A stretch of DNA of 64,000 nt from Alphaproteobacteria bacterium (GTDB lineage Bacteria; Pseudomonadota; Alphaproteobacteria; UBA2966). The position numbers and the translations under genes were made by a program. The notes beneath the pieces are model-generated. The model did not search any database. It was not told the DNA's origin and saw only the letters and a program-made list of their open reading frames with translations. Each line of letters starts with the position of its first letter. The stretch's first letter is position 1. The stretch spans positions 2,519,816 through 2,583,815 of the forward strand of contig OZ241357.1 in NCBI GenBank assembly GCA_965200265.1, given 5' to 3'. Shown piece by piece: positions 8,542 to 55,891 of the stretch.

Positions 8542-9497
8542 GGTTCGGCGCGCGCGCTCCGGGGTCTCGATTCCGGACCCACTGCTTCGAGATCGAACCC
8601 CTCGGCGGCCAGGGACTCCCGGAGCTCGCGCCTTCGGGTGGGCTCCAGCGGCGTCAGCGGCGGGCGCATCGCTTGCCAGCCGGGTTCGCCCGTGATCGTC
8701 GCCATCGCTTCCTTGAGGGCGGCGACGAGAGGAAAGCGGTCGAGCACCCGCCGCACCGCCACGAGCCGCTCCTGCCGGGCGTCCGCGTCGTCGCCGGATC
8801 GCTCATGGGCGCGGAATACGCCGGACGCCATCGGACTGGTCACGTTGGCGGTTGCCGAGATGCAGCCGGGCCCGCCGGCCCGCAGGACCGGCAGCAGATA
8901 TCGCTCCGTTCCCGCGTAGACGCCGAAACCGGGGAAGGCCTCCAGCAGGGACGTCATGTTGCCGAGGTCGCCGGAACTGTCCTTGAGGCCGACGACGACG
9001 TCGGGATAGTCCCGGCGCAGGAGCTCGATGGCGCCCACGGTGATCGGCATGCCGGTCATCGCGGGAAAATGGTACAGGATCACGCGCAGGTCGCCGTCCG
9101 CCACGCGGTCGATGATCCGCGCGAAGGACTCGGCCAGCCCCCGGTCGGTGACGCCCTTGTAGTAGAACGGCGGCAGCATCAGCACCGACCCGATGCCCGC
9201 GGCGCGGACGGCGCGCGTGAGCTCCAGCGTGTCCGGCTCGGCGCACGTCCCGGTTCCCACCATCAACCGGTCCTTCGGCAAGCCGCTCTCCCCCACCGCG
9301 TCGATGATCGACAGGCGCTCGGCGACGCTGAACGAATTGGCCTCGCCCGTCGTCCCCAAGATGCCGAGGCCGTCGCACCCGCGGTCGAGCAACCATCGGA
9401 AATGCGCCAGCATGGCCGGCAGGTCGGGCGCGAGATCCGCCGTCATGGGCGTCAACGCGGCGGCGAGAACGCCGCGCGTGACTCCGGAACCGGTCAT
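8538..9497 (-). CDS. Dihydrodipicolinate synthase/N-acetylneuraminate lyase family protein
   Basis: DapA-family TIM-barrel motifs (GILGTTGEANSFSVAERL, VGTGTC, YHFPAMTG..GLKDSSGD with Schiff-base Lys); internal Met start chosen; stop overlaps the upstream gene start. Confidence 0.8.
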   Translation of the reverse strand: MTGSGVTRGVLAAALTPMTADLAPDLPAMLAHFRWLLDRGCDGLGILGTTGEANSFSVAERLSIIDAVGESGLPKDRLMVGTGTCAEPDTLELTRAVRAAGIGSVLMLPPFYYKGVTDRGLAESFARIIDRVADGDLRVILYHFPAMTGMPITVGAIELLRRDYPDVVVGLKDSSGDLGNMTSLLEAFPGFGVYAGTERYLLPVLRAGGPGCISATANVTSPMASGVFRAHERSGDDADARQERLVAVRRVLDRFPLVAALKEAMATITGEPGWQAMRPPLTPLEPTRRRELRESLAAEGFDLEAVGPESRPRSARAEP

Positions 9498-9553
9498 CGT
9501 CGTCGCGCCTCCCTGCTTGCCCGGACTCGCCGCGGCGCCGCCGCGCGCGCCCT

Positions 9554-10027
9554 CTACGCGGGCCAGTTCACGACCCGGGCGCCGAGATCGTGGGGTTCGT
9601 CTTCGGAGATCGCCCTGTCCCGAACCGAAACGCCGGCGAGATGAACCGTTTCCGGATCGCCCGAGACCAGCGGGTGCCACCAGTGGAGATCGCGTCCCTC
9701 CGAGATCAGCCGATACGCGCAGGTGGACGGCAGCCACGTGAGCGCGCCGACCGTCTCCGGCGACAGCACCAGGCAGTCGGGCACGTGTCTCGTCCGTTCG
9801 GCGTAGCGCCGGCAACGACAGGTCCGGAGGTCGAGCAGACGGCAGGCCACGTCCGTGTGTTCGATCTCTCCGGTGTCCACCCACTCGACCTTGTTGAGAC
9901 AGCATTTGCCACAACCGTCGCACAGCGACTCCCACTCCTCGCGGGACATCTCGCCGAGTGATTTCCGTCGCCAGAACGGGCGCTCCGCGTCCGCCCCCGC
10001 CGCCGGGTTTCGGGTTCCGGCCGTCAC
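9554..10027 (-). CDS. YcgN/UPF0260-family Cys-rich protein
   Basis: CDGCGKCCLNK...CRLLD..CRCRRY cysteine cluster characteristic of YcgN. Confidence 0.75.
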   Translation of the reverse strand: MTAGTRNPAAGADAERPFWRRKSLGEMSREEWESLCDGCGKCCLNKVEWVDTGEIEHTDVACRLLDLRTCRCRRYAERTRHVPDCLVLSPETVGALTWLPSTCAYRLISEGRDLHWWHPLVSGDPETVHLAGVSVRDRAISEDEPHDLGARVVNWPA

Positions 10028-27259: not shown

Positions 27260-27949
27260 ATGGAACTCTCGGACAAGACCGCCCGCCGGATGTGGGAGGA
27301 GCTCAAGGCCAATCCGAAGCCGCGTTTCGGTTTCGGCAGGCGGCCGATGGTCGTGAACGTCGACGTCCAGAAGTCGTTCACGCTGGAGGATGAATACACG
27401 TCCGCCTATTCGACGCACCCCAGGCAGATCGACTACATCAACGAGATCTCCGGCATCGCCCGGTCGAAGAACCTGCCCGTCGTGTGGACCTACGTCGCCT
27501 ACATGGAGAACGCCGACGACTGCGGCGTCTGGGGAACCCGGAACGACCACGAGGACGCCCTCCAGAACGTCAAGGTCGGCTCGCGCAAGGCGGAGCTCGA
27601 CGACCGCTGCGACGTCGACCGCGGCAACGATGTCGTCATCAACAAGCGGGGCGCCTCGGCGTTCTTCCAGACGCACCTGCCCTCGCTCTGCGTGTGGTAC
27701 CGGACCGACACCGTCATCGTGACGGGCGGGTCGACCTCCGGCTGCGTGCGCGCGACGGTGGTGGACAGCCTTCAGAGCGGCTACCGCACCGTCGTCCCCG
27801 AGGAGTGCACCTCGGACCGGCACGAGAGTCCGCACTTCGCCAACCTCTACGACATGGCCGCGAAGTACGCCGACGTGATACCGGCCCGGGAGGTGATCGA
27901 CCATCTCAACGAATACGTCCCGGCGAACGACCCGGGAGGACGGTCATGA
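27260..27949 (+). CDS. Isochorismatase-family cysteine hydrolase (paralog 1)
   Basis: MVVNVDVQKSF..., catalytic-Cys region VIVTGGSTSGCVRATVVD; stop overlaps next gene start (ATGA). Confidence 0.8.
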   Translation: MELSDKTARRMWEELKANPKPRFGFGRRPMVVNVDVQKSFTLEDEYTSAYSTHPRQIDYINEISGIARSKNLPVVWTYVAYMENADDCGVWGTRNDHEDALQNVKVGSRKAELDDRCDVDRGNDVVINKRGASAFFQTHLPSLCVWYRTDTVIVTGGSTSGCVRATVVDSLQSGYRTVVPEECTSDRHESPHFANLYDMAAKYADVIPAREVIDHLNEYVPANDPGGRS

Positions 27950-28866
27950 CGGTCAGCGACCCCGGCATCTACGCGTACTCGCCGTACAACGACCGGCCCC
28001 GGATCACGTGGCCGGACGGCGCCCGCGTCGCCTTCTGGGTGGCGCCCAACATCGAGTTCTACGAGGCCCGTCCGCCCGCCAACCCGGTTCGCCAAGACAT
28101 GTCGAGGCCGGCGCCCGACGTCGTCTTCTACGCGCACCGCGACTACGGCAACCGGGTCGGCGTCTGGCGCATGATGGAGGCGATGGACCGTTACGGCGTG
28201 CGCGGCAGCGTGTCCCTCAACGTGGCCGTCTGCGACCATCATCCCGAGATCATCGAGGCGTGCGTCGAGCGCGGCTGGGAGCTGTTCTCCCACGGCGTCT
28301 ACAACACCCGCTACCAGTACGGCATGAGCGAGGCGCAGCACCGCGCGCTCATCGAGGACGCGATCGAGACCATCGACAGGGCGTCCGGCCAGAAGCTGGC
28401 CGGCTGGCTGTCGCCGGCGCTGAGCAACACGGAACGGACGCTCGACCTGCTGGCGGAGTACGGGGTGCTGTACACCTGCGATCTCTTCCACGACGACCAG
28501 CCGCAACCCGTCAAGGTCAGGCAGGGCCGGCTGATCAGCATCCCCTACTCGCTGGAGATGAACGACATCGTGGTCTACCACCAGATCAACTCGAGCCCGC
28601 CGCGCCAGTACACCGAGGTGATCAAGCGGCAGTTCGACCAGCTCTACGAGGAAGGGGCGGAGAACGGCACCGTCATGTGCATCCCGCTGCATCCGTTCCT
28701 CGTCGGCCAGCCGCACCGGGTCGGTCCGTTCGCCGAGGCGCTCGAATACATCACCGGCCACGACGGCGTCTGGGTGACGACGGGACGCGAGATCGCCGAG
28801 TACTACCTCGAACACCACTACGACGACGTCGTCGCGGCCCAGTCCGCCGCCACCGCCGGGGAGTGA
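27946..28866 (+). CDS. Polysaccharide deacetylase (NodB-homology/PuuE-like) family protein (paralog 1)
   Basis: VAFWVAPNIEFYE...HRDYGNRVGVWR...SHGVYN motifs of CE4/PuuE-like fold; 306 aa. Confidence 0.8.
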   Translation: MTVSDPGIYAYSPYNDRPRITWPDGARVAFWVAPNIEFYEARPPANPVRQDMSRPAPDVVFYAHRDYGNRVGVWRMMEAMDRYGVRGSVSLNVAVCDHHPEIIEACVERGWELFSHGVYNTRYQYGMSEAQHRALIEDAIETIDRASGQKLAGWLSPALSNTERTLDLLAEYGVLYTCDLFHDDQPQPVKVRQGRLISIPYSLEMNDIVVYHQINSSPPRQYTEVIKRQFDQLYEEGAENGTVMCIPLHPFLVGQPHRVGPFAEALEYITGHDGVWVTTGREIAEYYLEHHYDDVVAAQSAATAGE

Positions 28867-28870
28867 CGCC

Positions 28871-29794
28871 ATGAGCCTGCCCGACGATTACCTCGAGTAC
28901 CCGATCCGCGGCTACGGGATGGACCACGACCGCTACGGCTGGGAGATCCTGTTCCGCAGGACGCCCGTCGAATGGCCGGGCGGCGCGCGCGTGGCGTTGT
29001 GGATCACGCCGCTGCTGCAATGGTTCCCGATGGACATGGAGACCGGGCCGGTGGCGCCGCCCGGCGGATTCAACCGGCCCTATCCCGACTACCGGAACTA
29101 CTCCCACCGCGACTACGGCCTGCGCGTCGGCGTCTTCCGCTTCTTCAGGCTCTTCGACGCGCTCGGGATCAAGGCGTCGGCGGCGCTGAACTCCGCCGTC
29201 GGCGAGCGCTACCCGGTCGTCGTCGACGAGATCAACCGGCGCGGCTGGGAGGTCATCGCCCACGGCGTGCACATGGGCCACGTGAGCCACGGGGGCATGG
29301 ACGAGAAACTGGAGGCCGGGCGCGTCGAAAGCTGCATCCGGTCGCTGCGCGAGACCACGGGCCAGCCGGTCCGGGGCTGGCTGTCCATCGGCAAGTCCGA
29401 ATCGGACAACACCCCCGACCTTCTGGCCGCGAACGGGATCGAGTATCAGTGCGACTGGTGCAACGACGACATGCCGTACCGCTTCGCGACCGGGAACGGC
29501 GATCTCTTCGCCATGCCCCACACGGTCGAGCTCGACGACCGGGAGGTGCTGCTGCGCTTCCATCACCGCGAGGCGGAGTTCGTGCAGCAGATCAAGGACC
29601 AGTTCGACGTGCTCCACGCCGAGGCCGAGCGGTACGGCGGGCGGATCCTGTCGATCGCCCTGCATCCGTGGGTCATGGGACACCCCTACCGGATCCGTTA
29701 TCTCCGGGAGGCCCTGGAATACGTCCTCGGACACGACGGCGTCTGGCCCGCGACGGGGGCGGAGATCCTCGACGCCTGCAAGGCGCAGGCGTAG
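28871..29794 (+). CDS. Polysaccharide deacetylase (NodB-homology/PuuE-like) family protein (paralog 2)
   Basis: VALWITPLLQWF...HRDYGLRVGVFR...AHGVHMGHV; 307 aa, paralogous to the preceding gene. Confidence 0.8.
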   Translation: MSLPDDYLEYPIRGYGMDHDRYGWEILFRRTPVEWPGGARVALWITPLLQWFPMDMETGPVAPPGGFNRPYPDYRNYSHRDYGLRVGVFRFFRLFDALGIKASAALNSAVGERYPVVVDEINRRGWEVIAHGVHMGHVSHGGMDEKLEAGRVESCIRSLRETTGQPVRGWLSIGKSESDNTPDLLAANGIEYQCDWCNDDMPYRFATGNGDLFAMPHTVELDDREVLLRFHHREAEFVQQIKDQFDVLHAEAERYGGRILSIALHPWVMGHPYRIRYLREALEYVLGHDGVWPATGAEILDACKAQA

Positions 29795-29844
29795 GCGGCG
29801 GTCCACGCTACGAACGAGGCCGGAGCGGCGGAAAGGGCGAACCC

Positions 29845-30522
29845 ATGGAACTCTCGAACAAGACGGCCCGGCAGATGTACGAGGACCTGAAGTCGGCGCC
29901 GCCCAGGCGCAGGTTCGGCTTCGGCCGCAAGCCCATCATCGTCAATGTCGACGTGCAGAGCGCCTTCACGCTCGAGGAGGAGTACGACTCCGCCTATTCC
30001 ACCGATCCCGGACAGATGGCGTACATCAACCAGATCTGCGGAATCGCGCGGTCGAAGGGACTGCCGGTCGCGTGGTGCTACGTCGCCTACATGGAGAACG
30101 GACACGATTGCGGCGTGCGCGGCACCCGCAGCGACGGCCCGACCGCCCTCCAGAACATAAAGATCGGATCGAGGATGGCCGACCTCGACCCCCGGCTGAC
30201 CGTCGACGAGGGCCGCGACGTGATCTACCGAAAGGTCGGCGCGTCGGCCTTCTTCCAGACGCATCTGCCGTCGCTCTGCGTCTGGTACGGCGTCGACACG
30301 GTGATCGTCACCGGCGGCTCGACCTCGGGGTGCATCCGCTCGACGGTGCTCGACAGCGTGCAGCACGGCTACCGCACCATCGTGCCCGAGGAGTGCGTCG
30401 CCGACGTGCACGAAAGCCCGCACTTCCAGAACCTCTACGACATGGCCAGGAAGTACGCCGACGTCGTCCCGGTCGCCGAGGTCGTCGACTACCTCGACGG
30501 CTACGTCCCGGCGAACGGGTAG
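29845..30522 (+). CDS. Isochorismatase-family cysteine hydrolase (paralog 2)
   Basis: MELSNKTARQMYEDL... near-collinear with paralog 1 (IIVNVDVQSAF, VIVTGGSTSGCIRSTVLD). Confidence 0.8.
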   Translation: MELSNKTARQMYEDLKSAPPRRRFGFGRKPIIVNVDVQSAFTLEEEYDSAYSTDPGQMAYINQICGIARSKGLPVAWCYVAYMENGHDCGVRGTRSDGPTALQNIKIGSRMADLDPRLTVDEGRDVIYRKVGASAFFQTHLPSLCVWYGVDTVIVTGGSTSGCIRSTVLDSVQHGYRTIVPEECVADVHESPHFQNLYDMARKYADVVPVAEVVDYLDGYVPANG

Positions 30523-30551: not shown

Positions 30552-31499
30552 TTACAGGAAGAGCACGTCCTTCGCGTACATCTCCATCTTCTCGAGCGCT
30601 TCGCTCAGCGTCGGGCTCAGGAAGTTGAAGTTCAGCAGGCCGACGCCCAACTCGCGAAAGTGCTCGACGTCGCCGGCGATCTCCTCCGGCGCGCCCATGA
30701 ACAGCCGCCGTCCGCCGCCGTCGGCGACCGTCCCCGCGACACCGGCCCAGTTGGCCCAGAACGCCAGCGTGATGGTCGCCGGGTCGCGCCCTTTCTCCGC
30801 GGCCATCGCGTGGAGCCGGTCGACGTTGGCCTTGTACCGCTCGCGCGTGTCCATCCGGTTCCCGGGGTTGGCGCCGAGGGGATACCAGCCGTCGCCGAGC
30901 TCGACGACCCGGCGCAGCGCGGGGTCGCTCTCGCCGCCGACGAATATCGGAGGGTGGGGCTTCTGGACCGGCCTGGGCGCGAAGACGACGTCCGAGAAGC
31001 TCACGTAATCGCCCCGCATGGAGGGACTCTCCCGCGTCCACAGCTCCTTGAAGGCGCGGACGTATTCGTTCGTGACCCGGCCACGCTCGGCGTGCGGCGG
31101 CGCGCCGAGAGCCTCGAACTCCTCCTTCATCCAGCCCGCGCCGACGCCGATCGAGAGGCGGCCGCCGGACAGCACGTCGATGGTCGAGAGCATCTTCGCC
31201 GTCAGCACGGCCGGGCGATGGGGGACGACGAGCACGGAGGTCATGAGCCGCGGCTTCGTCGTGACCGCGGCCGCCCAGGTCACGACCGTGAGCTGGTCGA
31301 GACAGTCGCCGGCCCCGCCGCCGGGCATCTCGCCGGTCTCCGAGTACGGATACTCGAAGGCGTAGGCGCGCGGGATGACGAGGTGGTCGGGGACGGTCAG
31401 ATAGTCGTATCCGAGCCGTTCGCCGCACTCGGCCATCGCCCGGACGCCTTCCGGGTTGGCAAGCGGGCCGCGCGTCGGCAAACCGAATCCGAACTGCAT
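30552..31499 (-). CDS. LLM-class (luciferase-like) flavin-dependent oxidoreductase, paralog 1
   Basis: MQFGFGLPTRGPL...DHLVIPR...GGRLSIGVGAGWMKEEFEALGAP...; TIM-barrel LLM family. Confidence 0.8.
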   Translation of the reverse strand: MQFGFGLPTRGPLANPEGVRAMAECGERLGYDYLTVPDHLVIPRAYAFEYPYSETGEMPGGGAGDCLDQLTVVTWAAAVTTKPRLMTSVLVVPHRPAVLTAKMLSTIDVLSGGRLSIGVGAGWMKEEFEALGAPPHAERGRVTNEYVRAFKELWTRESPSMRGDYVSFSDVVFAPRPVQKPHPPIFVGGESDPALRRVVELGDGWYPLGANPGNRMDTRERYKANVDRLHAMAAEKGRDPATITLAFWANWAGVAGTVADGGGRRLFMGAPEEIAGDVEHFRELGVGLLNFNFLSPTLSEALEKMEMYAKDVLFL

Positions 31500-31679
31500 C
31501 GCAATCCTCCTTCAAGCGGTCCGGCGCCACTCTGCCACCGGGTCCGGGAGCGGGGCAAATCGGGGCGGGCGCCGCGTTGATGCGGCTTCCGCAATCGGGT
31601 ATCAAGCCGGGTCACGGCGTGGATGTCGGAAGGCATCGCGTTTCCTCTCGACCGAACCCGACGCGGCGGGGCGGCGGCC

Positions 31680-32954
31680 ATGAAGCTGAAATGCGTGGAG
31701 ATCGAGAACTACCGGGCCATCGAGAAGCTCGACCTGCCGCTCGACCCCGACTTGACGGTGTTCCACGGCGCCAACGGGCACGGCAAGACCAGCGTGCTCA
31801 GCGCCATCGCCGTGGGCCTCGGCAGCATTCCCACGTTGTTGCCGGAAGTCTCCGGTATCGGCTTCCGCAAGACCGACCGGCGCGGGCAGCAGCCCTTGCG
31901 GGTGGCGCTGCACACGCTGGACGGGATCGAATGGGAGCGGCGCATGGCCGGGCAGCGGAAATTGACCCGTCGTCGTCCGTTGCAGGAGGCGCTGGACGCT
32001 ATCGTCGCCGCGGACAGCGAGGGAGCCGCGCCACGCGACCTTCCCATCGTCGCTTTCTACGACACGGATCGCGCGGTGTTCGACGCGTCGCATCGGCGCC
32101 GGAGCTTCAAGACGGAGTTTCCGCGTTACGCGGCGCTGGAGGAGGCGCTCACCCCCCGAACCAACTTCAGTGAGTTCTTCAAGTGGTTCTACGCCTTGGA
32201 GAACGAGGAGGTCCGGGAACAAAAGGAACGGGGGGGGGACTGGGAGTTGAAGGAACTGAAAGCCGTCCGCAAGGCGATCGAACGCATGGTCCCCGGAGTC
32301 TCCGACCCGCAGATCAAATTCCGGCCCGTGCGGTTCGCCGTGTCCGTGAAGTCGGAAGCGGGCAAGACGGAAAAACTCGCGCTCGACCAGCTGAGCGGCG
32401 GCTACCGCATCATGCTGGCGCTCGCCGCCGATCTCGCCCGGCGCATGGCGCAAGGGAACCCGCATCTCGACGACCCGCTCCAGTCGGAAGCGATCGTGCT
32501 GATCGACGAAGTCGACCTGCATCTGCATCCTCACTGGCAACATCGGGTGCTGACCGATTTGACGACGGCCTTCCCGAACACGCAGTTCATCGTCTCCACC
32601 CACAGCCCGCCGGTGCTGACGACAGTTCGTCCAAAGCACATCGTCCGGCTTTACCACGACGACGGGCGCATCGTCGCCGGACAACCGAACGCGCCGACCT
32701 ACGGCGCCGAGGCGGGAAGCGTGCTCGAAGCGATCATGGGCGTGCAGGAACGGCCGGCTGCCGAACACAACGAATTCGTGAAGAAGCTCGAGGAATACAG
32801 GCGTCTCGTCGATGACGGCCGCGGGCGGTCCGAAGAAGCCGTGTCGCTCAGGGGTGAGCTCGAAAGCCTCTCCCCCAGGGATCCGGCACTTGATGCGGCG
32901 GACATGGAAATGGATCGGCAGGAAATTTTCACGCGGTTGGGGAAGGGGTCTTGA
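31680..32954 (+). CDS. ptuA: AAA_21/OLD-type ATPase, Septu PtuA-like
   Basis: Walker A GANGHGKTS, ABC-signature-like LSGGYR, Walker B/D-loop IVLIDEVDLHLHPHWQ; 424 aa; contains a 9-nt G run (32230-32238). Confidence 0.7.
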   Translation: MKLKCVEIENYRAIEKLDLPLDPDLTVFHGANGHGKTSVLSAIAVGLGSIPTLLPEVSGIGFRKTDRRGQQPLRVALHTLDGIEWERRMAGQRKLTRRRPLQEALDAIVAADSEGAAPRDLPIVAFYDTDRAVFDASHRRRSFKTEFPRYAALEEALTPRTNFSEFFKWFYALENEEVREQKERGGDWELKELKAVRKAIERMVPGVSDPQIKFRPVRFAVSVKSEAGKTEKLALDQLSGGYRIMLALAADLARRMAQGNPHLDDPLQSEAIVLIDEVDLHLHPHWQHRVLTDLTTAFPNTQFIVSTHSPPVLTTVRPKHIVRLYHDDGRIVAGQPNAPTYGAEAGSVLEAIMGVQERPAAEHNEFVKKLEEYRRLVDDGRGRSEEAVSLRGELESLSPRDPALDAADMEMDRQEIFTRLGKGS

Positions 32955-33694
32955 AACGGATACGGTCACTCCAAGGCCCCGTACCCGGCCTTGCCGACTA
33001 CAGGAAACAAGCCAGCGCGCAGGCGAATTGGAAGGGATATCGCAAGCACCGCGCAGGCAAGAAGCGGTATCAGAGCCTCATCGAAAGCCTTGTCGGCCTT
33101 CAGCACGGACTCTGCGGTTACTGCGAGATCGATCTTGTCGAGGGCGACCGTCAGGTCGAGCACGTCATCTCGAGAAACAAGGCGCCGGACCGCGATCTCG
33201 ATGCCGAGAACATGATCGCTTGTTGCAGAGGCGGCGCATCGGACGACTCCGACGTTCGAGGCGACCGGGAGCGGTTTTCGCCGCCGGATGCGAGTTGTGG
33301 CCACGCGATGGGCAATACCGACGACCCGGAATTCGTCGATCCGAGGACGGTGCCCGACCTGCCGTCGTTGACGCGTGTCCGTCCGGACGGCCAGATCGAG
33401 GCCGATACGGGTGCCTGCGCGGACGCCGGATGGTCCGCCGACAGCGTGGAGAAGACCATCCGGATCCTGGGTTTGAACGTCCAACGACTACAAACGACTC
33501 GGAGGGATTATTGGGACAATCTCTCGAGCAAGATGCCCGCCTATCACGGCAACCCGAATGCAATGGAAGAGTGGGCGCGTAGTCGGCTTTTGCCGAAGAA
33601 CGGCACCCTGCCGAAGTTCTTTACCGTCAGCCGTTCGTATTTCGGGCTGTTGGGCGAGGAGATTCTGGCGGAAGAACCCCGCGAATGGATTTGA
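32951..33694 (+). CDS. ptuB: HNH endonuclease, Septu PtuB-like (retron-type CxYCE HNH)
   Basis: LCGYCEIDL...RQVEHVISRNKAP HNH core; TTG start overlapping the ptuA stop (TTGA), so the start is uncertain. Confidence 0.65.
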   Translation: MKRIRSLQGPVPGLADYRKQASAQANWKGYRKHRAGKKRYQSLIESLVGLQHGLCGYCEIDLVEGDRQVEHVISRNKAPDRDLDAENMIACCRGGASDDSDVRGDRERFSPPDASCGHAMGNTDDPEFVDPRTVPDLPSLTRVRPDGQIEADTGACADAGWSADSVEKTIRILGLNVQRLQTTRRDYWDNLSSKMPAYHGNPNAMEEWARSRLLPKNGTLPKFFTVSRSYFGLLGEEILAEEPREWI

Positions 33695-33769
33695 ACCGAC
33701 GTCCGACGGCACCCTGAGAGTGCAGGCAGGCGGCGGTCTCCGCTCGGCGGGCCGTGGTAGCCTCCGCGG

Positions 33770-34192
33770 ATGTTCGAGGAGCGGCAGCGGGCGTTTCTGA
33801 ACGGCCGGCGCGTCGGGCGGCTGGCGACGGCGGACGCGGCCGGGCGGCCCCACGTGGTGCCGGCGTGCTTTGCGCTCGGCGCGCGCGGCGTCTACATTAC
33901 GATCGACGAGAAGCCGAAAAGGAGGGCGGGGCAGCCCCTGAAGCGTATCCGCAACATCCTCGAAAACCCTTCGGTGGCGCTGGTCGTCGATCGCTACGAC
34001 GAGGACTGGAGCCGCCTCGGCTGGGTGATGGTGAGGGGTTCGGCGGAAATTCTGGAGAACGGCGACGAGCACGACCGGGCGCAGGCGCTGCTGCGGGACC
34101 GCTACCCCCAGTATCGGCGAATGGCCCTGGAGGACCTTCCCGTCATCGCCATCCGCGCCGAGCGCGTGACGAGCTGGGGGAATCTCGACTGA
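33770..34192 (+). CDS. PPOX-class (pyridoxamine 5'-phosphate oxidase-like) FMN/F420-binding split-barrel protein
   Basis: LNGRRVGRLATADAAGRPHVVPACFAL...VALVVDRYDEDWSRLGWVMVRGSAEIL pattern of the TIGR03618-like PPOX class. Confidence 0.7.
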   Translation: MFEERQRAFLNGRRVGRLATADAAGRPHVVPACFALGARGVYITIDEKPKRRAGQPLKRIRNILENPSVALVVDRYDEDWSRLGWVMVRGSAEILENGDEHDRAQALLRDRYPQYRRMALEDLPVIAIRAERVTSWGNLD

Positions 34193-34230
34193 CCACGCCG
34201 GAACCCGCGGAGAACGGCAGGCATGATAGG

Positions 34231-35355
34231 ATGGACATGACGGAAGAACTGAAAATGTGGACGGTCGGGAACGGTGGCGAGGCCGCTCCGGTGAAGCAAG
34301 TGAGGCACATCGAAACCGAAAACCTGCTAGAAAAGACGCTCGTCAAGAACCCGGACATGCTGATACCGGGGTTGAAACTCGTGGGGCGACAGACGCCGAC
34401 CGACGGAGGCTGGCTCGACCTGCTGGGCGTGGACCGGGATGGCCGGCTCGTCGTATTCGAATTGAAACGCGGCAAGCTCACGCGGGAGGCGGTCACCCAG
34501 ATCATCGACTACGCCTCGGACCTCAATGCCATGAACGACAAACAACTGGCGGAGCACATCACCCAACGGTCGGGCCGCGACGGCATAGAGAAGATCGAGA
34601 ATTTCGACGACTGGTACGAAGACTGGCGCGCCCAACATATCGAGGAACCCGACGAGGCGCCTCAGTTACGGCCCGTGAAGATGATGCTTGTCGGTCTCGG
34701 CGCCGATGCCCGAGCTACCCGGATGGTGGACTTCCTGGCGCGGGGCGTGGACATATCGCTTCTGACGTTCCACGGCTACGAACATGAAGGCAAAACCTTT
34801 CTCGCCAGGCAAGTACAGGCGGAGCCGGACCTGACCGAAGAGTTCCGCGGCGGGAAGGAGAGCCGCGAAGAGCGCCGTCGAAAGCGCCGTCGCGCCGTTG
34901 AGGAATTGGCCGAAAATCATGGTGTAAGCGATATATTCAACGAGGCGGTCAGAAGATTCTTGGACTTGGATAGTCGTTATACGCCGCACACTCGTAGGGA
35001 CGGGTATGCTTTCTACGCGGCGCGGTCGTTGACGCTCTCCGGACACGATACAAAATTCAACAGCCCACTGTCGTTGAGGATTACCCGGAACGGAGAGATG
35101 CGCGTGACCTTCTTCCCGGTCTCGGTACATCTCTGCAAGCAGAAATTCCGGGAGGCGACACAATCCAATCCATCCCTGTTCAAATGCGAGCCTCCACCCA
35201 ATGCCCCTCGCACGAACGACGTCCCGGAGCAGTGGTACTGCGTCCTGGATCGGTCGGGATGGGATGAGCACAAGGAAAGACTGTTCGAGCTCGCCAAGGA
35301 CGTCTCCACGGCATGGAACAAGACCGAGCAAGAGGCCGGATCACGGGCGGCGTAA
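34231..35355 (+). CDS. NucS/DUF91-like PD-(D/E)xK nuclease-domain protein with uncharacterised C-terminal region
   Basis: GGWLDLLGVDRDGRLVVFELKRGKLTREAVTQIIDYASDL matches the D...(E)LK core of NucS/EndoMS-type nucleases; remaining about 250 aa unassigned. Confidence 0.65.
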   Translation: MDMTEELKMWTVGNGGEAAPVKQVRHIETENLLEKTLVKNPDMLIPGLKLVGRQTPTDGGWLDLLGVDRDGRLVVFELKRGKLTREAVTQIIDYASDLNAMNDKQLAEHITQRSGRDGIEKIENFDDWYEDWRAQHIEEPDEAPQLRPVKMMLVGLGADARATRMVDFLARGVDISLLTFHGYEHEGKTFLARQVQAEPDLTEEFRGGKESREERRRKRRRAVEELAENHGVSDIFNEAVRRFLDLDSRYTPHTRRDGYAFYAARSLTLSGHDTKFNSPLSLRITRNGEMRVTFFPVSVHLCKQKFREATQSNPSLFKCEPPPNAPRTNDVPEQWYCVLDRSGWDEHKERLFELAKDVSTAWNKTEQEAGSRAA

Positions 35356-35457
35356 TCCGCCGATACGGACTGATCTCGCCGAGCCGCGGCAGCGCCCGCC
35401 GAATCGCCCCCGTCGCCGCGCCGGTTCGGGGCGCGGGCGGCATGGCCGGCAGCGGCG

Positions 35458-36030
35458 TTACGGCTTTCCGGTTTCCGGCGCCGGGCGCCGCAGGGCCATC
35501 AGGATGCCGGCGAGATGGCCGATCACAGGGACCTCGCCGTTGGCCGCGGCCCGCGCCAGCTCGTCGCGGGTCATGAGCACGGTCTCGATCTCTTCAAGGT
35601 TCGTCGCCGGGTCGGGTTCCCGCTTCCAGACGCCGCCCGACGCCAGGAAGAAGTGCTCCTCGCCGCAGCGCTGGTTGTTGTTGCGGCAGAAGGCGCCGAG
35701 AGGCCGCCAGTCCCGGCACTCGTACCCCGTCTCCTCGAGCAGCTCCCGCCGGGCGGCGGCGAGCGGCTCTTCGCCCGGATCGACGATCCCGCCGGGAAGG
35801 GTGAGCGAGATCCGCTCCGGTCCATGCTTGTACTGCCGCTGACAGATGAACCGGCCGTCCTCCGCCGTCGCGGCCACCCACGCCTGATCGGGGAGATCGA
35901 CCCGGTAGTAGGGCTCGTATCGCCGGCCGCCGGGAAGCTCGACCGCGTGGGCGGACACCGAGAGCCGCCGGGGGACGACGAATATCTCCCGCGATCCCAG
36001 CAACTTCCACGGTCGGAGATCGCGGGTCAC
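35458..36030 (-). CDS. NUDIX hydrolase (ADP-ribose pyrophosphatase-like)
   Basis: Nudix box GGIVDPGEEPLAAARRELLEETG; GTG start overlaps the stop of LLM paralog 2 (GTGA). Confidence 0.7.
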   Translation of the reverse strand: MTRDLRPWKLLGSREIFVVPRRLSVSAHAVELPGGRRYEPYYRVDLPDQAWVAATAEDGRFICQRQYKHGPERISLTLPGGIVDPGEEPLAAARRELLEETGYECRDWRPLGAFCRNNNQRCGEEHFFLASGGVWKREPDPATNLEEIETVLMTRDELARAAANGEVPVIGHLAGILMALRRPAPETGKP

Positions 36031-37016
36031 GGGCCGGTCCCGGAACCGATGAACTCCGCCGCGTATGCCTCCATCCCTTCGAGCGTCTCCCCGATGGTTT
36101 CCCGCTCGAAGTTGACGATGACGGAGTCGACGCCGATCTCCTCCATGGCCGCCATGTCGTCCTTCATGTGCCGGGCGCTGCCGCTCAGGAGGCGCCGGTC
36201 TCCACCGGGAAACGGGGCGTCGACTTCCGCCGGCCGCAGCGGCTCGCCCGGTTCCGTCCCCCACCACAGCGTGAACCACGTGACCCGGAGCGAGGCGGGA
36301 TCCCGGCCGGCGTCCTCCGCCAGCCCGTGGAGCCTGTCCACATACGTCCGCAACCGCTCCAGCGTGTCGAGGGGGACCCTGGCGTTGTGGGCCATGGGGA
36401 TCCAGCCGTCACCCAGCGTCGCGGCGCGGCGCATGGCCGGGGGGCTCTCGCCGCCCACCAGGATGGGCGGGCGCGGTTTCCGAACCGGCTTCGGCTCGAA
36501 GATGATGTCGGCGAAATCGACGTAATCGCCGTGGAACTCCGGGTCGTCGTTCGTCCACAGCTCCTTGAACGCCTCGATGTATTCGTTGGCGACCCTGCCG
36601 CGCTCGGCATGGGGCGGCGCGCCCAGGGCCTCGAACTCCTCCTTCATCCATCCCGCCCCGCACCCCACGGAAAGACGGCCGCCGGAAAGGTAGTCAAGGC
36701 TCGCCAGCGCCTTGGCCGTCGGGACCGGCGAACGGTGCGGCAGCACCAGCACGGACGTGAGCAGGCCGACGGACCGCGTCCGGGCGGCGACGAACGCCAG
36801 CGCCGTCAGCTGATCGACGAAATCCCCGAAACGTCCGGGCAGCCAGTCGCCGTCCCTGGTATAGGGATAGTCCGAGACCCGGCTTCGCGGCACCACCAGA
36901 TGGTCCGTCATGGACAGGAAATCGAAGCCGAGCGCCTCGCCCTTCCGGGCCAGGGCCGACATGTTCTCCGGCGCGCTCAGCGGTCCCCGCGTGGGGACGT
37001 AGAACCCGATCTCCAT
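36027..37016 (-). CDS. LLM-class flavin-dependent oxidoreductase, paralog 2
   Basis: MEIGFYVPTRGPL...GGRLSVGCGAGWMKEEFEALGAPPHAERG; paralogous to 30552-31499. Confidence 0.8.
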   Translation of the reverse strand: MEIGFYVPTRGPLSAPENMSALARKGEALGFDFLSMTDHLVVPRSRVSDYPYTRDGDWLPGRFGDFVDQLTALAFVAARTRSVGLLTSVLVLPHRSPVPTAKALASLDYLSGGRLSVGCGAGWMKEEFEALGAPPHAERGRVANEYIEAFKELWTNDDPEFHGDYVDFADIIFEPKPVRKPRPPILVGGESPPAMRRAATLGDGWIPMAHNARVPLDTLERLRTYVDRLHGLAEDAGRDPASLRVTWFTLWWGTEPGEPLRPAEVDAPFPGGDRRLLSGSARHMKDDMAAMEEIGVDSVIVNFERETIGETLEGMEAYAAEFIGSGTGP

Positions 37017-37040
37017 GAAGGCTTCCCCGTCGTGGCGCCG

Positions 37041-38057
37041 TCACGCGCCGCGACCCGCTCGACCGTCCGCCGCCGGGGCCGAGAGCGGGCCGACGTCGCG
37101 GGCGAACGCCTCCATCCCGTCCATGGTCTCGGAAAGGCCGGGACGCTCGAAGTTCAGCACGAGCGCCTTCACGCCGAGCCCTTCCAGCGCCGCGACGTCG
37201 GCCGCCATCTGCTCCGCCGAGCCCGTCATCAGACGACGGTTGCCATCGGTCGCCGGACCGTCCGTTCCCAGCGGCGGCAAGGGATCGCCGGGTTCCGATC
37301 CCCACCGCATGATGAAGAAGGCGCGGTCGACGTCGTCGATGCTCCGCCCCGTCTCCCCGGCGAGACGCGCCAGACCGTCCAGGGCCGCCTCGTACCTGTC
37401 ACGGGTGTCGAGAGGGTAGTTCGGGTTGTGCGCGATGGGAAGCCAGCCATCGCCGAGCCGGACGACGCGGCGCAGGGCGGGCCTGCTCTCGCCCCCGATC
37501 CAGACCGGCGGGCCCGGCCGCTGCACGGGACGCGGGAGGAATGCGATGTCGGCGAAGTCCGCGTAATCGCCGTGGAATTCCGGGTCCTCGGCGCTCCACA
37601 GCTCCCTGAAGACGCGGATGTACTCGTCGGTGACCTTGCCGCGCTCCCCGTGGGGAGGCGCGCCGATCGCCTCGAACTCCTCCTTGCACCAGCCGGCGCC
37701 GACGCCGACGGTGAGACGACCGCGGGACAGGACGTCGATCGTCGACAGCATCTTCGCCGCGAGCACCGGCGGCCGATGCGGCGCGACCATGACCGAAGTC
37801 AGGAGGCGGGCCGAACCGGTCCGCCCGGCGAGATAGGCGAGAACCGTCAACTGGTCGCAGAAATCCCCGAATCGCCCCGCGGGCCAGTCGCCCTCGTCGG
37901 TATAGGGGTATCTGGAGTCCACGCCGCGCGGCACGACGACGTGATCGGTCACCGCGATGTAGCCGTACCCCAGCTCCTCGCCCCTGGCAGCCAGCGCCGT
38001 CATGTGCTCGGGCGTGCCGAGGGGGCCTCGTGTCGGAAGGTAGAAGCCGAATTCCAT
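37041..38057 (-). CDS. LLM-class flavin-dependent oxidoreductase, paralog 3
   Basis: MEFGFYLPTRGPL...RGRLTVGVGAGWCKEEFEAIGAPPHGERG; internal Met start chosen. Confidence 0.8.
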   Translation of the reverse strand: MEFGFYLPTRGPLGTPEHMTALAARGEELGYGYIAVTDHVVVPRGVDSRYPYTDEGDWPAGRFGDFCDQLTVLAYLAGRTGSARLLTSVMVAPHRPPVLAAKMLSTIDVLSRGRLTVGVGAGWCKEEFEAIGAPPHGERGKVTDEYIRVFRELWSAEDPEFHGDYADFADIAFLPRPVQRPGPPVWIGGESRPALRRVVRLGDGWLPIAHNPNYPLDTRDRYEAALDGLARLAGETGRSIDDVDRAFFIMRWGSEPGDPLPPLGTDGPATDGNRRLMTGSAEQMAADVAALEGLGVKALVLNFERPGLSETMDGMEAFARDVGPLSAPAADGRAGRGA

Positions 38058-38197
38058 GTCGTCGTCCCTCGAACCGCAGGCATTCCGGATCGTTCGCACC
38101 CGCATTTATAGCGGATGGCTCCGCGCGTGTGACCAGCCGGTCGGCAAAGGACGGCGAAGCGGTTCCGGCCGAACGGGAACCGCTCTAGATTGGGCGC

Positions 38198-53683: not shown

Positions 53684-54002
53684 CCCTTCGGGTCATCTTC
53701 GGCGCCAAGGAGGATTTCTTCATCAAGGCTGTCATGGCCTACACCAAATTTGGCCTTGAATAGCAAAGCCAATTCGTGTCTACTTGTGACGCATTCGGAT
53801 TCACATGAGGGTCGAGAACACGCATAGGGGGTAATTCGTGCTTCCGGTTGCCCAAGGCTACACACCTAACCGTGGTTTCCTTGCCGATTTCCCTGATGTA
53901 GGCTTTTTCTCGATGTCCCCACGTTCGATGAGAAGAAACGAGCCGTTGATCCCTCTCTTGCTCAACGCTACACTACACTGACCCGTACCGAAGGAACCAC
54001 CC

Positions 54003-54431
54003 ATGAACCCGAGAAAAATCTTTATCGCATGCGTCACCACAGCCATATTGACCGGCTGTGCATCACTAGATAAACTAAATTTGTCACTCGGTCCATTTCC
54101 GACTGATTACAAAACAACCATCAAGAAAGAGGTCTTGCGTGGCTTCTTTGATCCTTATTCGATTCGAGATGCTTCGATATCTGCGCCTATACGGTCCCGC
54201 ATAGTCGAACCTAAAGGGTGGCTTGTTTGCCTTGAGGTAAACGCCAAGAACAGGATGGGTGGTTACACTGGACTATCCCGCACCGCCTACTATATCCGGC
54301 TTGGCGGGCAGGTAATCGGAATCGAGGACGGTGATTCCGGAAACTGGACTTGCTCCGGTCAAACAATCAGTGGGATGAGGACGTTGACTTATTCGTTGTG
54401 GCCAGAGCTTGAACAGCTTCAACATCAATAG
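54003..54431 (+). CDS. Lipoprotein, function unknown (low-GC islet)
   Basis: Signal peptide + lipobox (ILTGCAS); lies in a distinctly AT-richer segment. Confidence 0.55.
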   Translation: MNPRKIFIACVTTAILTGCASLDKLNLSLGPFPTDYKTTIKKEVLRGFFDPYSIRDASISAPIRSRIVEPKGWLVCLEVNAKNRMGGYTGLSRTAYYIRLGGQVIGIEDGDSGNWTCSGQTISGMRTLTYSLWPELEQLQHQ

Positions 54432-54457
54432 CATCCACTCCCGGTCCCTTCTACCGC

Positions 54458-54730
54458 TCATACGTGGAATTTGTAACGAATTGTCAGAGATGCTCCTCTT
54501 TTCCCTTTCGGTTGGTGAATGATGTCATCTCTATCCTCTTTGTACTCCTGCCACATGACATTCGCACATGAGGGCATGTTCGCAGCGCGCTCTCCACGTT
54601 TGGGTGGGTAACCACCAAGTTTCCGGTAAAGCTCACCAGCATTTATCTCAGCATGTGGGCGACCCTGCTGTTGGGCGCGTTTGATCTGTGCTCGAAGTTC
54701 TTCTCGAAACTCGTCTGTGGTTGGCGGCAT
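54458..54730 (-). CDS. Hypothetical small basic protein (low-GC islet)
   Basis: 90 aa, Lys/Arg-rich, non-repetitive composition (...EINAGELYRKLGGYPPKRGERAANMPSCANVMWQEY...); no family assigned. Confidence 0.4.
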   Translation of the reverse strand: MPPTTDEFREELRAQIKRAQQQGRPHAEINAGELYRKLGGYPPKRGERAANMPSCANVMWQEYKEDRDDIIHQPKGKRGASLTIRYKFHV

Positions 54731-55043
54731 CAGGAATTCACCTTACAAGACCTGGGGATACGATGTCGGCAGTTGGTTTCAGTGCGGCTTCCGTACCGAT
54801 CCGGTGTTCAGGCCCCTCGTTCGACTCTTGGTCCAGTAACCTTGAAGCACCTTGTGCCGAATGCTCCCTGTCATGGTTGCAGAGTGGCGGGCCGCGGCGC
54901 ATTTGTCAAACACTGCCTTACAGATGCCGGGAACATCGCCGCGCGCCGGACCTCCGGTCTCGCGAGGACCCCGCCGCTGATGACCAGCCCGGTGTCTTCC
55001 GCGGCCGAACACCCCTATCGTATGAAATCAGCTCTTCCTTCTG

Positions 55044-55442
55044 TTGTCAGATGCTGATAACCTTGTGGCGGTAACCACACCCGACCGCGATCCCGGGCTG
55101 GACACCCTGCTGGACCTTCACGGCCAGACCCTGTTCGTGGATGAGGTCGGACATTGGGTGAAGTTTGTCGTGCTGCGAACCGATGTGACTCCGGAACGTC
55201 CGCACGGACTCAGCTATTCGCTGACACTGCACGCACCGGACGGCACCAGGTTGGTCGGGTTCGACAACGCGCACCCGGTGAGGGAGCGGCGAGGTCCGGG
55301 AATGCGGAAACGCATGAAGAGCGACCACAAGCACCGGATTCGGACAGTCCGGCCCTATGATTACGAAGACGCCGCCACGCTTCTTGAGGATTTCTGGACC
55401 GAGGTAGATCGGATTCTGAAGGAAGGAGAGTCGATTCCATGA
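55044..55442 (+). CDS. TumE-like toxin-family protein (DUF6516-like)
   Basis: FDNAHP...H.H pattern (GFDNAHPVRERRGPGMRKRMKSDHKHRIR) and 4-nt overlap with a downstream HTH gene, as in TumE/TumA-type pairs. Confidence 0.55.
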   Translation: MSDADNLVAVTTPDRDPGLDTLLDLHGQTLFVDEVGHWVKFVVLRTDVTPERPHGLSYSLTLHAPDGTRLVGFDNAHPVRERRGPGMRKRMKSDHKHRIRTVRPYDYEDAATLLEDFWTEVDRILKEGESIP

Positions 55443-55819
55443 GGACGTTGAAGATCGGTATTGCCGACTATGATCGGATGAAGGCGCGCACCATGGAGAT
55501 CGCGCACGGCGAACGCAAGCCGGCCAAGGGCGAGCCGATGGTATGGTTCACGTCGGTCGAGAGCTTCGCGAAGGTGCTCTCCCGGCGCAATCAGGAACTT
55601 CTGGCGTTGATCGCCCGCGAGAAGCCGCGGTCGCTCACCGAGCTGGCGGAACTCGCGGGGCGGAACAAGTCGAACCTGTCGCGCACCCTGAAGACGATGT
55701 CGCGGTATGGCCTCGTGGAATTGACGGAAGGACGACGTGGCATGTTGGTCCCGCGGGTCCGGTACGACCGGGTGAGGCTGGACGTTTCGTTGACGCCGCT
55801 CCCGCACCAAGTCGCGTGA
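55439..55819 (+). CDS. HTH DNA-binding protein (HVO_A0114/MarR-like), putative antitoxin partner
   Basis: Winged-helix segment ELLALIAREKPRSLTELAELAGRNKSNLSRTLKTMSRYGLVEL; ATGA overlap with the preceding gene. Confidence 0.55.
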   Translation: MRTLKIGIADYDRMKARTMEIAHGERKPAKGEPMVWFTSVESFAKVLSRRNQELLALIAREKPRSLTELAELAGRNKSNLSRTLKTMSRYGLVELTEGRRGMLVPRVRYDRVRLDVSLTPLPHQVA

Positions 55820-55891
55820 AGCGGCCGGAATCGACGGGCGCGGACGGTCCGGAGAGACCGCCATGCCCCGGCGACCCGTATGTGAACGCCC

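Follow-up and report, generated by a model that had tools for sequence, protein, structure and literature searches.

A putative stand-alone restriction-type nuclease, with a NucS-like module and a predicted MotA-like C-terminal domain, beside a Septu locus of an alphaproteobacterium

The question raised by this locus is whether a nuclease gene that lies next to a Septu defence module works together with that module or serves a function of its own, and, in the latter case, which DNA it would be directed against. The gene occupies positions 34231-35355 (+ strand) of a 64,000-nucleotide stretch, hereafter the window, of the genome of an alphaproteobacterium of the UBA2966 lineage (assembly GCA_965200265.1, contig OZ241357.1, positions 2,519,816 to 2,583,815). 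An earlier note, made from the sequence of the window, had described the gene product as a NucS-type PD-(D/E)xK nuclease domain fused to an uncharacterised region of about 250 amino acids (aa), and had proposed it as a candidate for a new or accessory defence function. As suggested by our analysis, the gene most likely encodes, by analogy with MdgA and the END nucleases, a stand-alone, probably modification-dependent, restriction-type nuclease. The fuller reading, that it is a self-contained single-gene restriction-type DNA endonuclease directed against foreign DNA and belongs to one modular superfamily with MdgA and the PADLOC candidate PDC-S11, we regard as about evenly balanced.

Because the window has about 69% G+C, long spurious open reading frames (ORFs) are common in it, and an ORF alone is therefore little proof of a gene. 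The ORF at 34231-35355 (+, span including the stop codon), which yields a 374-aa product with the motifs that the earlier note had quoted, encodes a real gene: it scored clearly positive with a self-trained codon-usage gene caller that reproduces the public (ENA) gene calls of the region, and a protein identical to its product (P0001, 372 aa, starting at the second methionine) is encoded on a metagenome scaffold with the same neighbours. Homologues are numerous (2,127 at E<=1e-3 as 90% clusters; 2,209 representatives at 50% identity), mostly 345-380 aa long, and none of them carries an informative name. Translation probably starts at ATG 34237 (+; 372 aa), two codons downstream of 34231, where the ENA call for the same gene begins and where, at the second methionine, most of the aligned homologues start. 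An AlphaFold2 (AF2) model built from a 120-sequence alignment shows two confident domains (mean predicted local distance difference test, pLDDT, 85); the predicted template modelling score (pTM) of the whole protein is only 0.53 because linker residues 197-208 are disordered.

As judged from sequence and model, residues 1-196 (34231..34818, +) form a nuclease module of the NucS-type PD-(D/E)xK kind, in which the D63/E77/K79 site is intact. Pfam, PADLOC, PDB and AF2 results and residue conservation all mark out this module. The family NucS_C of Pfam was matched by residues 30-100 (E=6e-9, above the gathering score), phmmer retrieved from the PDB the NucS of Pyrococcus abyssi (2vld, E=6e-8) and the EndoMS of T. 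kodakarensis (5gke, E=1.5e-5), and Foldseek with the AF2 model led to 5gkj and 2vld (E=2e-5), which bears out the nuclease identity read by the earlier note. The catalytic core (34417..34467, +) comprises D63 (34417-34419), E77 (34459-34461) and K79 (34465-34467) and lies within residues 59-98, GGWLDLLGVDRDGRLVVFELKRGKLTREAVTQIIDYASDL; in the phmmer alignment the three residues fall on residues 160, 174 and 176 of 2vld, which we take to be the NucS active site. Together with Q90 and Y94 they are invariant across 35 sequences and conserved at >=90% both across 120 sequences and across 147 more distant ones.

The module runs from a small beta-hairpin and a helix through strands of the core, on which D63, E77 and K79 lie, a helix with Q90 and Y94 and a helical insert to the last strands (LVGLGAD ... 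LLTFHGY ... LAR), which extend up to residue ~196. The Pfam and PDB sequence alignments end near residue 100-104, before the insert (residues ~101-145, 34531..34665, +; AF2 helices 103-113 and 125-136), in which W128 and Y129 are conserved in the homologue alignment. As model and conservation pattern show, insert and last strands, ~100 aa up to residue ~196, complete the nuclease fold. The region of about 250 aa that the earlier note had set apart is on this evidence not one unit: some 100 aa of it belong to the nuclease, and residues ~212-374 form a domain of their own, the part that stays without a family. Between the two domains lies a charged disordered linker (residues ~197-211, 34819..34863, +; pLDDT <50 at 197-208), the most variable stretch of the alignment.

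The C-terminal alpha/beta domain (residues ~212-374, 34864..35352, +) has no assignable sequence family, just as the earlier note had stated, and Pfam left it blank even at E<=10. Among 147 representative homologues, one has a Pfam domain of known position in this region, namely DUF4268. Modelled alone with AF2, the domain reached a pLDDT of 95.2 and a pTM of 0.89, with six strands, the element order alpha-alpha-beta4-alpha-alpha-beta2-alpha and a long final helix. Its top PDB match in Foldseek was the C-terminal domain of phage T4 MotA bound to double-stranded DNA (dsDNA) (5jlt; E=3e-3, probability 0.99, template modelling (TM) score 0.50 normalised to MotA, 128 aligned columns), and its predicted fold is that of this dsDNA-binding "double wing" domain. 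The top match in BFVD, a 108-aa entry unnamed in the library, had statistics nearly identical to those of the MotA match, and further BFVD matches comprised several phage G proteins and one DUF5655 protein. MotA is the best structural match, yet the identity is 15-18% and common ancestry is not implied; moreover, MotA is a transcription activator and has no nuclease part. From the modelled fold, the C-terminal domain would bind DNA and pick the DNA that is to be cut.

The best-conserved element of this domain is the loop E320-P-P-P-N-A-P-R-T328 (consensus ExPPNAPxT; 35188..35214, +), which in the AF2 model joins strands 318-320 and 334-339. In the 35-sequence alignment E320, P322, A325 and T328 are conserved at >=90%, and E320, P322 and T328 still are in that of 120 sequences, which makes the loop a candidate for a contact or recognition loop. 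Residues F261, R291, F294, C302, C337, W344 and W362 of the domain are likewise conserved. The protein ends in ...EQEAGSRAA, and after W362 the tails of the homologues vary in length and sequence; NucS has a conserved C-terminal sliding-clamp-binding tail.

Comparison with known defence genes, in which PADLOC matches are profile E-values rather than calls at PADLOC's own thresholds, placed the gene next to PDC-S11. The only PADLOC models listed at E<=1 were those of PDC-S11, PDC-S18 and PDC-S02. The PDC-S11 model PDLC04916 was matched by residues 3-214 (E=6e-32), over profile positions 1-201 of 358 only, and the other PDC-S11 models were weaker (PDLC04915, E=7e-18). P0204, a protein with NucS_C and DUF4268 according to Pfam, matches PDC-S11 models over both halves, PDLC04913 nearly end to end, and PDC-S11 is hence NucS plus DUF4268. 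Thus the nuclease half is held in common; the PDC-S11 members match on through DUF4268, whereas the match of our gene ends at position 201. PDC systems are untested candidates found by guilt-by-embedding within BREX, DISARM, type I restriction-modification or Hma loci (Payne et al., bioRxiv 10.1101/2024.01.29.577857), and the supplements of that paper contain no description of PDC-S11. Those candidates are embedded in defence loci, whereas the family of the gene is mostly solitary.

A functional precedent for this architecture is MdgA (modification defence gene A), a single gene with NucS and DUF4268 domains obtained by functional metagenomics (bioRxiv 10.1101/2025.02.28.640651). In E. coli it is necessary and sufficient for defence against T4, gives none against the unmodified T4-GT7 and defends against Mu too; digestion by the purified protein is potent with T4 DNA and far weaker with T4-GT7 DNA, and the E77A variant is inactive (bioRxiv 10.1101/2025.02.28.640651). 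Both MdgA and our gene product are encoded by a single gene, begin with a NucS-type nuclease and end with a C-terminal domain of ~140-160 aa. The catalytic glutamate is residue 77 of an E-x-K motif in both, within VIV-E-N-K as encoded by the MdgA mutagenesis primer (bioRxiv 10.1101/2025.02.28.640651) and VVF-E77-L-K79 in the gene product; the shared number is consistent with a similar N-terminal layout and does not prove it. The primer sequence itself had no match in metagenome contigs. The two proteins differ in the C-terminal domain, which is DUF4268 in MdgA and, by Pfam, hidden Markov model (HMM) and hhalign, is not DUF4268 in the gene product.

DUF4268 was rejected as the identity of our C-terminal domain, given no Pfam match at E<=10, an HMM match of E=0.07 and an hhalign probability of 0.75%, where the HMM and hhalign comparisons used a DUF4268 set of five closely related sequences only, which distant homology could escape. 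The isolated DUF4268 domain found nothing in a word-index search, and a sequence search of the PDB gave no DUF4268 structure. By eye, the element order of the C-terminal domain resembles our guess of the DUF4268 order.

The nuclease module has been joined to a whole series of other domains. A search based on P0204 revealed it, at 50-80% identity over ~200 residues, together with DUF4268, PF01035, ParB_N or unannotated C-terminal regions. The fusions to PF01035, the DNA-binding domain of O6-methylguanine methyltransferase (MGMT), form a large subgroup (P0300-P0367, 430-456 aa). In 25 of the 25 that were examined, P-W-(H/W/Y)-R-V replaces P-C-H-R-V, so the catalytic cysteine is absent. Such a PW-type motif is characteristic of alkyltransferase-like proteins, by which alkylated guanine is flipped and bound but not repaired. 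The MGMT-like domain would accordingly be an inactivated repair domain serving as a reader, as in the END nucleases. The same fusions retain, as shown by HMM matches collinear at both domain ends, a diverged copy of the C-terminal domain between the nuclease and the MGMT-like part. ParB_N (PF02195) precedes the nuclease module in P0215, P0284, P0286, P0287, P0290 and P0291; in P0215, the one such fusion inspected, nothing C-terminal follows the module.

Two of the homologue loci carry a further protein of this general type. At L038 the homologue is immediately preceded, on its own strand, by the gene of a true DUF4268 protein (~8697-9755, +; Pfam E=1.7e-24), so that two different nuclease-plus-reader genes stand there in tandem; this protein is most likely the source of a PADLOC PDC-S11 match of E=1e-92. 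At L072 (Latescibacterota) a divergent second NucS-module protein of 357 aa is encoded five genes downstream (NucS_C E=1e-3, a weak match), and its C-terminal region is different and likewise unannotated.

Other single-gene nucleases were compared as well. With NucS/EndoMS (2vld, 5gke) the gene product has in common the PD-(D/E)xK catalytic domain and the following Q/Y helix, and it differs from them in the extra helical insert, the unrelated C-terminal domain and a patchy, horizontally transferred distribution. A true NucS orthologue was ruled out: the N-terminal half of NucS has no match in the gene product, where NucS_C alone exceeds the Pfam threshold, and the scores lie far under the NCBIfam equivalog cut-offs (NF003270, 56.5 bits vs 216; NF002876, 25.7 vs 252), with only profile positions 123-203 aligned. 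In END-Mag, which restricts phages with modified G (PMC12191111), a NucS-like PD-DExK nuclease is combined with an EndoIII domain that is inactive. The END nucleases likewise unite a NucS-like nuclease and a DNA-reading domain in one gene, have no methyltransferase and use an exchangeable sensor; theirs has a helix-hairpin-helix glycosylase fold, whereas that of our gene product is predicted to be an alpha/beta double-wing fold, and neither helix-hairpin-helix nor EndoIII was found in the Pfam or Foldseek results for the protein. Among the type IV enzymes, those of the GmrSD group include DUF4268 and PF01035 as accessory domains (PMC4619093), the same two that are fused to the nuclease module in relatives of the gene. 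The GmrSD nuclease is DUF262/DUF1524 as against a NucS-like one here, and the gene product itself carries neither accessory domain. Shedu (SduA) has a DUF4263 nuclease, and DUF4263 and Shedu models were absent from the Pfam (E<=1) and PADLOC (E<=1) matches of the protein.

A nuclease joined to an exchangeable reader in one gene is thus already known and partly validated for the NucS type and is not a new principle. What is new in the family is, according to the model, the replacement of the reader by a Pfam-orphan domain of MotA-like fold.

Taken together, these likenesses suggest the following mode of action. The NucS-like module would cut DNA, probably as a dimer like NucS and by double-strand breaks, and the double-wing domain would select the substrate. 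MdgA and the NucS-like END nuclease serve as models for the target, which would most likely be DNA with a base modification foreign to the host; the host's own chromosome would then need no partner methyltransferase for its protection. The window has no DNA methyltransferase gene next to the nuclease gene, and MdgA, END-Mag and the sibling readers point to non-canonical bases, for which reasons modified foreign DNA is the most likely substrate. The nuclease would act alone, with no contribution from the Septu genes next to it. Fold assignments, conservation and modularity are what the data show; the binding of DNA by the C-terminal domain, modification dependence and dimerisation are the steps that we infer.

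A broader and decidedly more tentative reading, which we would rather doubt than adopt, is that the C-terminal domain represents an unrecognised class of MotA-like double-wing DNA readers of which DUF4268 is a distant member, so that MdgA, PDC-S11 and the present family (>2,000 proteins) would make up one type IV-like superfamily. As part of the same reading, the reader would give the NucS-type nuclease specificity for a modification or other feature of phage DNA, in phages of uncultured bacteria.

Several observations weigh against the proposed role. MdgA was compared through its published description and a primer, and since the C-terminal domain is not DUF4268 the functional analogy rests on the nuclease half and the architecture. 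MdgA was assayed against T4 and Mu, and the subfamily of our gene is known from sequence alone. The match to 5jlt is modest (E ~3e-3, TM 0.36-0.50), and weaker Foldseek matches were to protein-binding folds, those of YbjN (6vu7) and of the type III secretion chaperones ExsC (3kxy) and SycH (4gf3), with probabilities of 0.4-0.55. Furthermore, the C-terminal domain may be a general DNA clamp or a dimerisation unit rather than a specificity element, because the MGMT-like fusions keep it and add a reader.

The genomic surroundings of the homologues count on the same side. A pattern-seeded scan of one genome per species (185,579 genomes) confirmed 287 loci, of which 80 were fetched, and neighbours were counted at the 79 homologue loci other than the window, with our own gene calling and clustering. 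Within two genes of the homologue there are 149 distinct neighbour families, of which a handful match PADLOC at E<=1e-8 (HEC-05, a true PDC-S11, PtuB, PDC-S05, Mad3, SoFic, PDC-M55C and PDC-S07, one protein each); the Pfam families of the neighbours are mostly metabolic, and many homologues lie inside housekeeping operons. Because so few neighbour families match PADLOC and the Pfam families are mostly metabolic, the family is not a typical defence-island resident. Of the two findings that the earlier note had named as telling against a defence role, housekeeping surroundings, together with toxin-antitoxin ones, are largely what the homologues have, and loss of the catalytic residues did not occur. 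Its proposal of a defence candidate stays reasonable in view of the PDC-S11 match and the precedent of MdgA; the association with defence islands is weak.

All 80 fetched loci come from metagenome-assembled genomes of uncultured lineages, in at least seven bacterial phyla or classes, including Dehalococcoidia, other Chloroflexota, Vicinamibacterales, Binatia, Alphaproteobacteria, Latescibacterota, Nitrospirales and Gemmatimonadota. Several of the bin names resemble those of marine-sponge symbiont studies. No record of a cultured organism, a plasmid or a phage was among the carriers of the family. In a group of Dehalococcoidia the order is pyrR-pyrB-NUDIX-pyrC-homologue-carA-...-carB, the identities having been taken from reading the sequences and not from a database scan. 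This pyr-operon arrangement was seen in L039, L042, L043, L045, L050, L055, L056, L062, L064, L081 and L082 (~6 kb around position 10001), and small inserts in the same operon resemble, on reading their sequences, VapBC, DUF2283 and Phd-type toxin-antitoxin pairs. It seems that selfish or defence genes have entered this core operon and that its own genes have nevertheless stayed together. In a Chloroflexota group, a lactonase gene, membrane-protein paralogues, an aminotransferase gene and a GNAT gene surround the homologue; elsewhere homologues occur amid CoA-transferase paralogues, or beside RelE/helix-turn-helix (HTH) and PIN pairs and insertion sequence (IS) fragments. Loci L073 and L074 lie at opposite ends of the 78-kb contig CBDHFM010000020.1 and are identical copies of one homologue with its neighbours in inverted orientation, which must reflect either a large inverted repeat or an artefact of assembly.

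The two halves of the protein evolve at different rates. Mean identity to the query over the 79 homologues is 55% in the nuclease module and 28% in the C-terminal domain, which thus diverges about twice as fast. Divergent paralogues occur in several genomes, and in the pair L061 and L080, on one contig of a member of the Vicinamibacterales (CBDBMZ010000003.1), the nuclease modules are 91% and the C-terminal domains 63% identical, which suggests that the gene was duplicated recently and that the C-terminal domain then diverged fast or was exchanged. Such a pattern would be expected if a conserved effector were coupled to a specificity domain that is under pressure to diversify.

The neighbourhood in the window was analysed in the same terms. 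Septu is represented by ptuA (31623-32954) and ptuB (32951-33694), on the + strand (31623..33694), with PADLOC matches of E=5.5e-114 for PtuA and E=1.3e-50 for PtuB and matches to the NCBIfam PtuA and PtuB models. They are followed by a gene for a PPOX-class F420-dependent oxidoreductase (TIGR03668; 33770..34192, +; NCBIfam E=3e-50, above the cut-off), so that the order of genes upstream, as the earlier note had given it, is confirmed by PADLOC and NCBIfam. The G+C content at third codon positions (GC3) is 0.83 in ptuA, 0.73 in ptuB, 0.74 in the nuclease gene, 0.88-0.92 in the flanking genes and a host-like 0.887 in the PPOX gene; overall G+C is 0.59 in the nuclease gene vs 0.69-0.70 in flanking genes. 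Because the host-like PPOX gene divides them, ptuAB and the nuclease gene are two separate foreign low-GC3 segments and not one operon by origin. The site is better described as a small hotspot at which two independent defence-type genes have landed.

Blastp searches with PtuA and PtuB of the window revealed ptuAB beside a homologue in 1 of the 79 other loci, L003, a close alphaproteobacterial relative that has the synteny of the whole window in common; a second close relative (L004/L083) has the order PPOX gene, homologue, NUDIX gene without ptuAB. Protein identity between the window and L003 is 90-95% for the flanking genes, 86% for PPOX, 75% for PtuA, 67% for PtuB and 65% for the nuclease. 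All three defence-type genes diverge much faster than their surroundings.

How far do these data allow other functions? An infection-triggered toxic nuclease, in which the C-terminal domain would sense a phage protein or DNA structure and free a non-specific nuclease, could draw on the structural matches to YbjN, ExsC and SycH, on the toxin-antitoxin genes (RelE/HTH, PIN, VapBC-like) and IS fragments that homologues often have nearby, and on the fast evolution of the C-terminal domain, which fits any sensor. We consider it unlikely, given that the top structural match is a dsDNA-bound domain (probability 0.99-1.0), that the sibling fusions bear readers of DNA or bases (DUF4268, the cysteine-less MGMT-like domain, ParB_N) and that the characterised NucS-type defence nucleases act on modified DNA directly. 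Slightly less likely still is a housekeeping or DNA-repair endonuclease for damaged or mismatched DNA, that is, a divergent relative of NucS/EndoMS. The NucS-like core, the relatives with MGMT-like domains of repair-protein origin and the many homologues in metabolic operons, such as that of pyrimidine biosynthesis in Dehalococcoidia, would agree with such a role; against it stand the unmatched N-terminal half of NucS with the low equivalog score, the rarity and patchiness of a family found at 287 loci in 185,579 species genomes of unrelated phyla, the host-atypical composition, the divergence so much faster than that of the neighbours, and the divergent paralogues of several genomes. Even in the pyr operon the gene has toxin-antitoxin inserts for neighbours, and it has the look of an invader there more than of an operon member.

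A further possibility is a selfish nuclease gene of the homing-like or addictive type, mobile by insertion into conserved operons and of no defensive benefit to the host. In keeping with this, the homologue is a solitary gene of foreign composition in many unrelated contexts, adjoining toxin-antitoxin genes and IS remnants, and no neighbour family recurs in more than 18 of the 79 loci. We nevertheless hold it to be highly improbable: no repeats, integrase or transposase consistently accompany the gene, tblastn gave no match in a plasmid collection or in a phage collection, one locus was found among the viral contigs of IMG/VR, and the gene keeps the same position in three related genomes as its sequence diversifies, which fits selection on function. 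The role suggested by the earlier note, that of an accessory to the Septu system (PtuAB) beside it or of a third component, has in its favour that the nuclease gene follows ptuB after 537 bp in the same orientation and that L003 has the same layout. The functional tie does not hold, however, since ptuAB is absent from 78 of the 79 other loci and from the close relative L004/L083, since the intervening PPOX gene is host-like (GC3 0.887 vs 0.73-0.83 in ptuAB and 0.74 in the gene), and since the family matches a single-gene PADLOC candidate; the accessory role was ruled out on co-occurrence and composition, and we leave it only the faintest likelihood. The preferred reading thus continues to be a self-contained nuclease against foreign DNA.

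The family is large (>2,000 proteins), unnamed and almost entirely from uncultured bacteria, and PADLOC models cover its nuclease half only. It is becoming apparent that single-gene nucleases which read DNA modifications provide a common and transferable means of defence against phages, and such enzymes are also becoming tools with which modified DNA can be detected. If the C-terminal domain does read a DNA modification, it would imply an unrecognised phage DNA chemistry in these communities and a new reader fold; if it does not, the family would still be a clean natural example of one nuclease module recombined with different sensors.

The immediate neighbours of the nuclease gene in the window are genes for PPOX, NUDIX and luciferase-like oxidoreductases. 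The NUDIX gene (35458-36030, -) is convergent and downstream, with a weak PADLOC match to PDC-S07 (E=7e-5). It adjoins the nuclease gene in the two closest relatives as well, at 92-94% identity, and this adjacency is therefore better explained by shared locus ancestry than by a functional link. Three luciferase-like oxidoreductase paralogues flank the segment with Septu and the nuclease (30552-38105), and at 27260-30522 a pair of genes of ~306 aa, of which one is Polysacc_deac_1, stands between two genes of the isochorismatase family. No tRNA was found in the window. Its lowest-G+C stretch lies at 53700-55820 (0.53 at 54-55 kb) and holds ORFs of 142 aa (54003-54431, +) and 90 aa (54458-54730, -), followed by overlapping genes of 125 and 126 aa (55065-55819, +), the second of HTH-like appearance; from composition and ORF layout this stretch may be a small foreign insert or a toxin-antitoxin-like pair.

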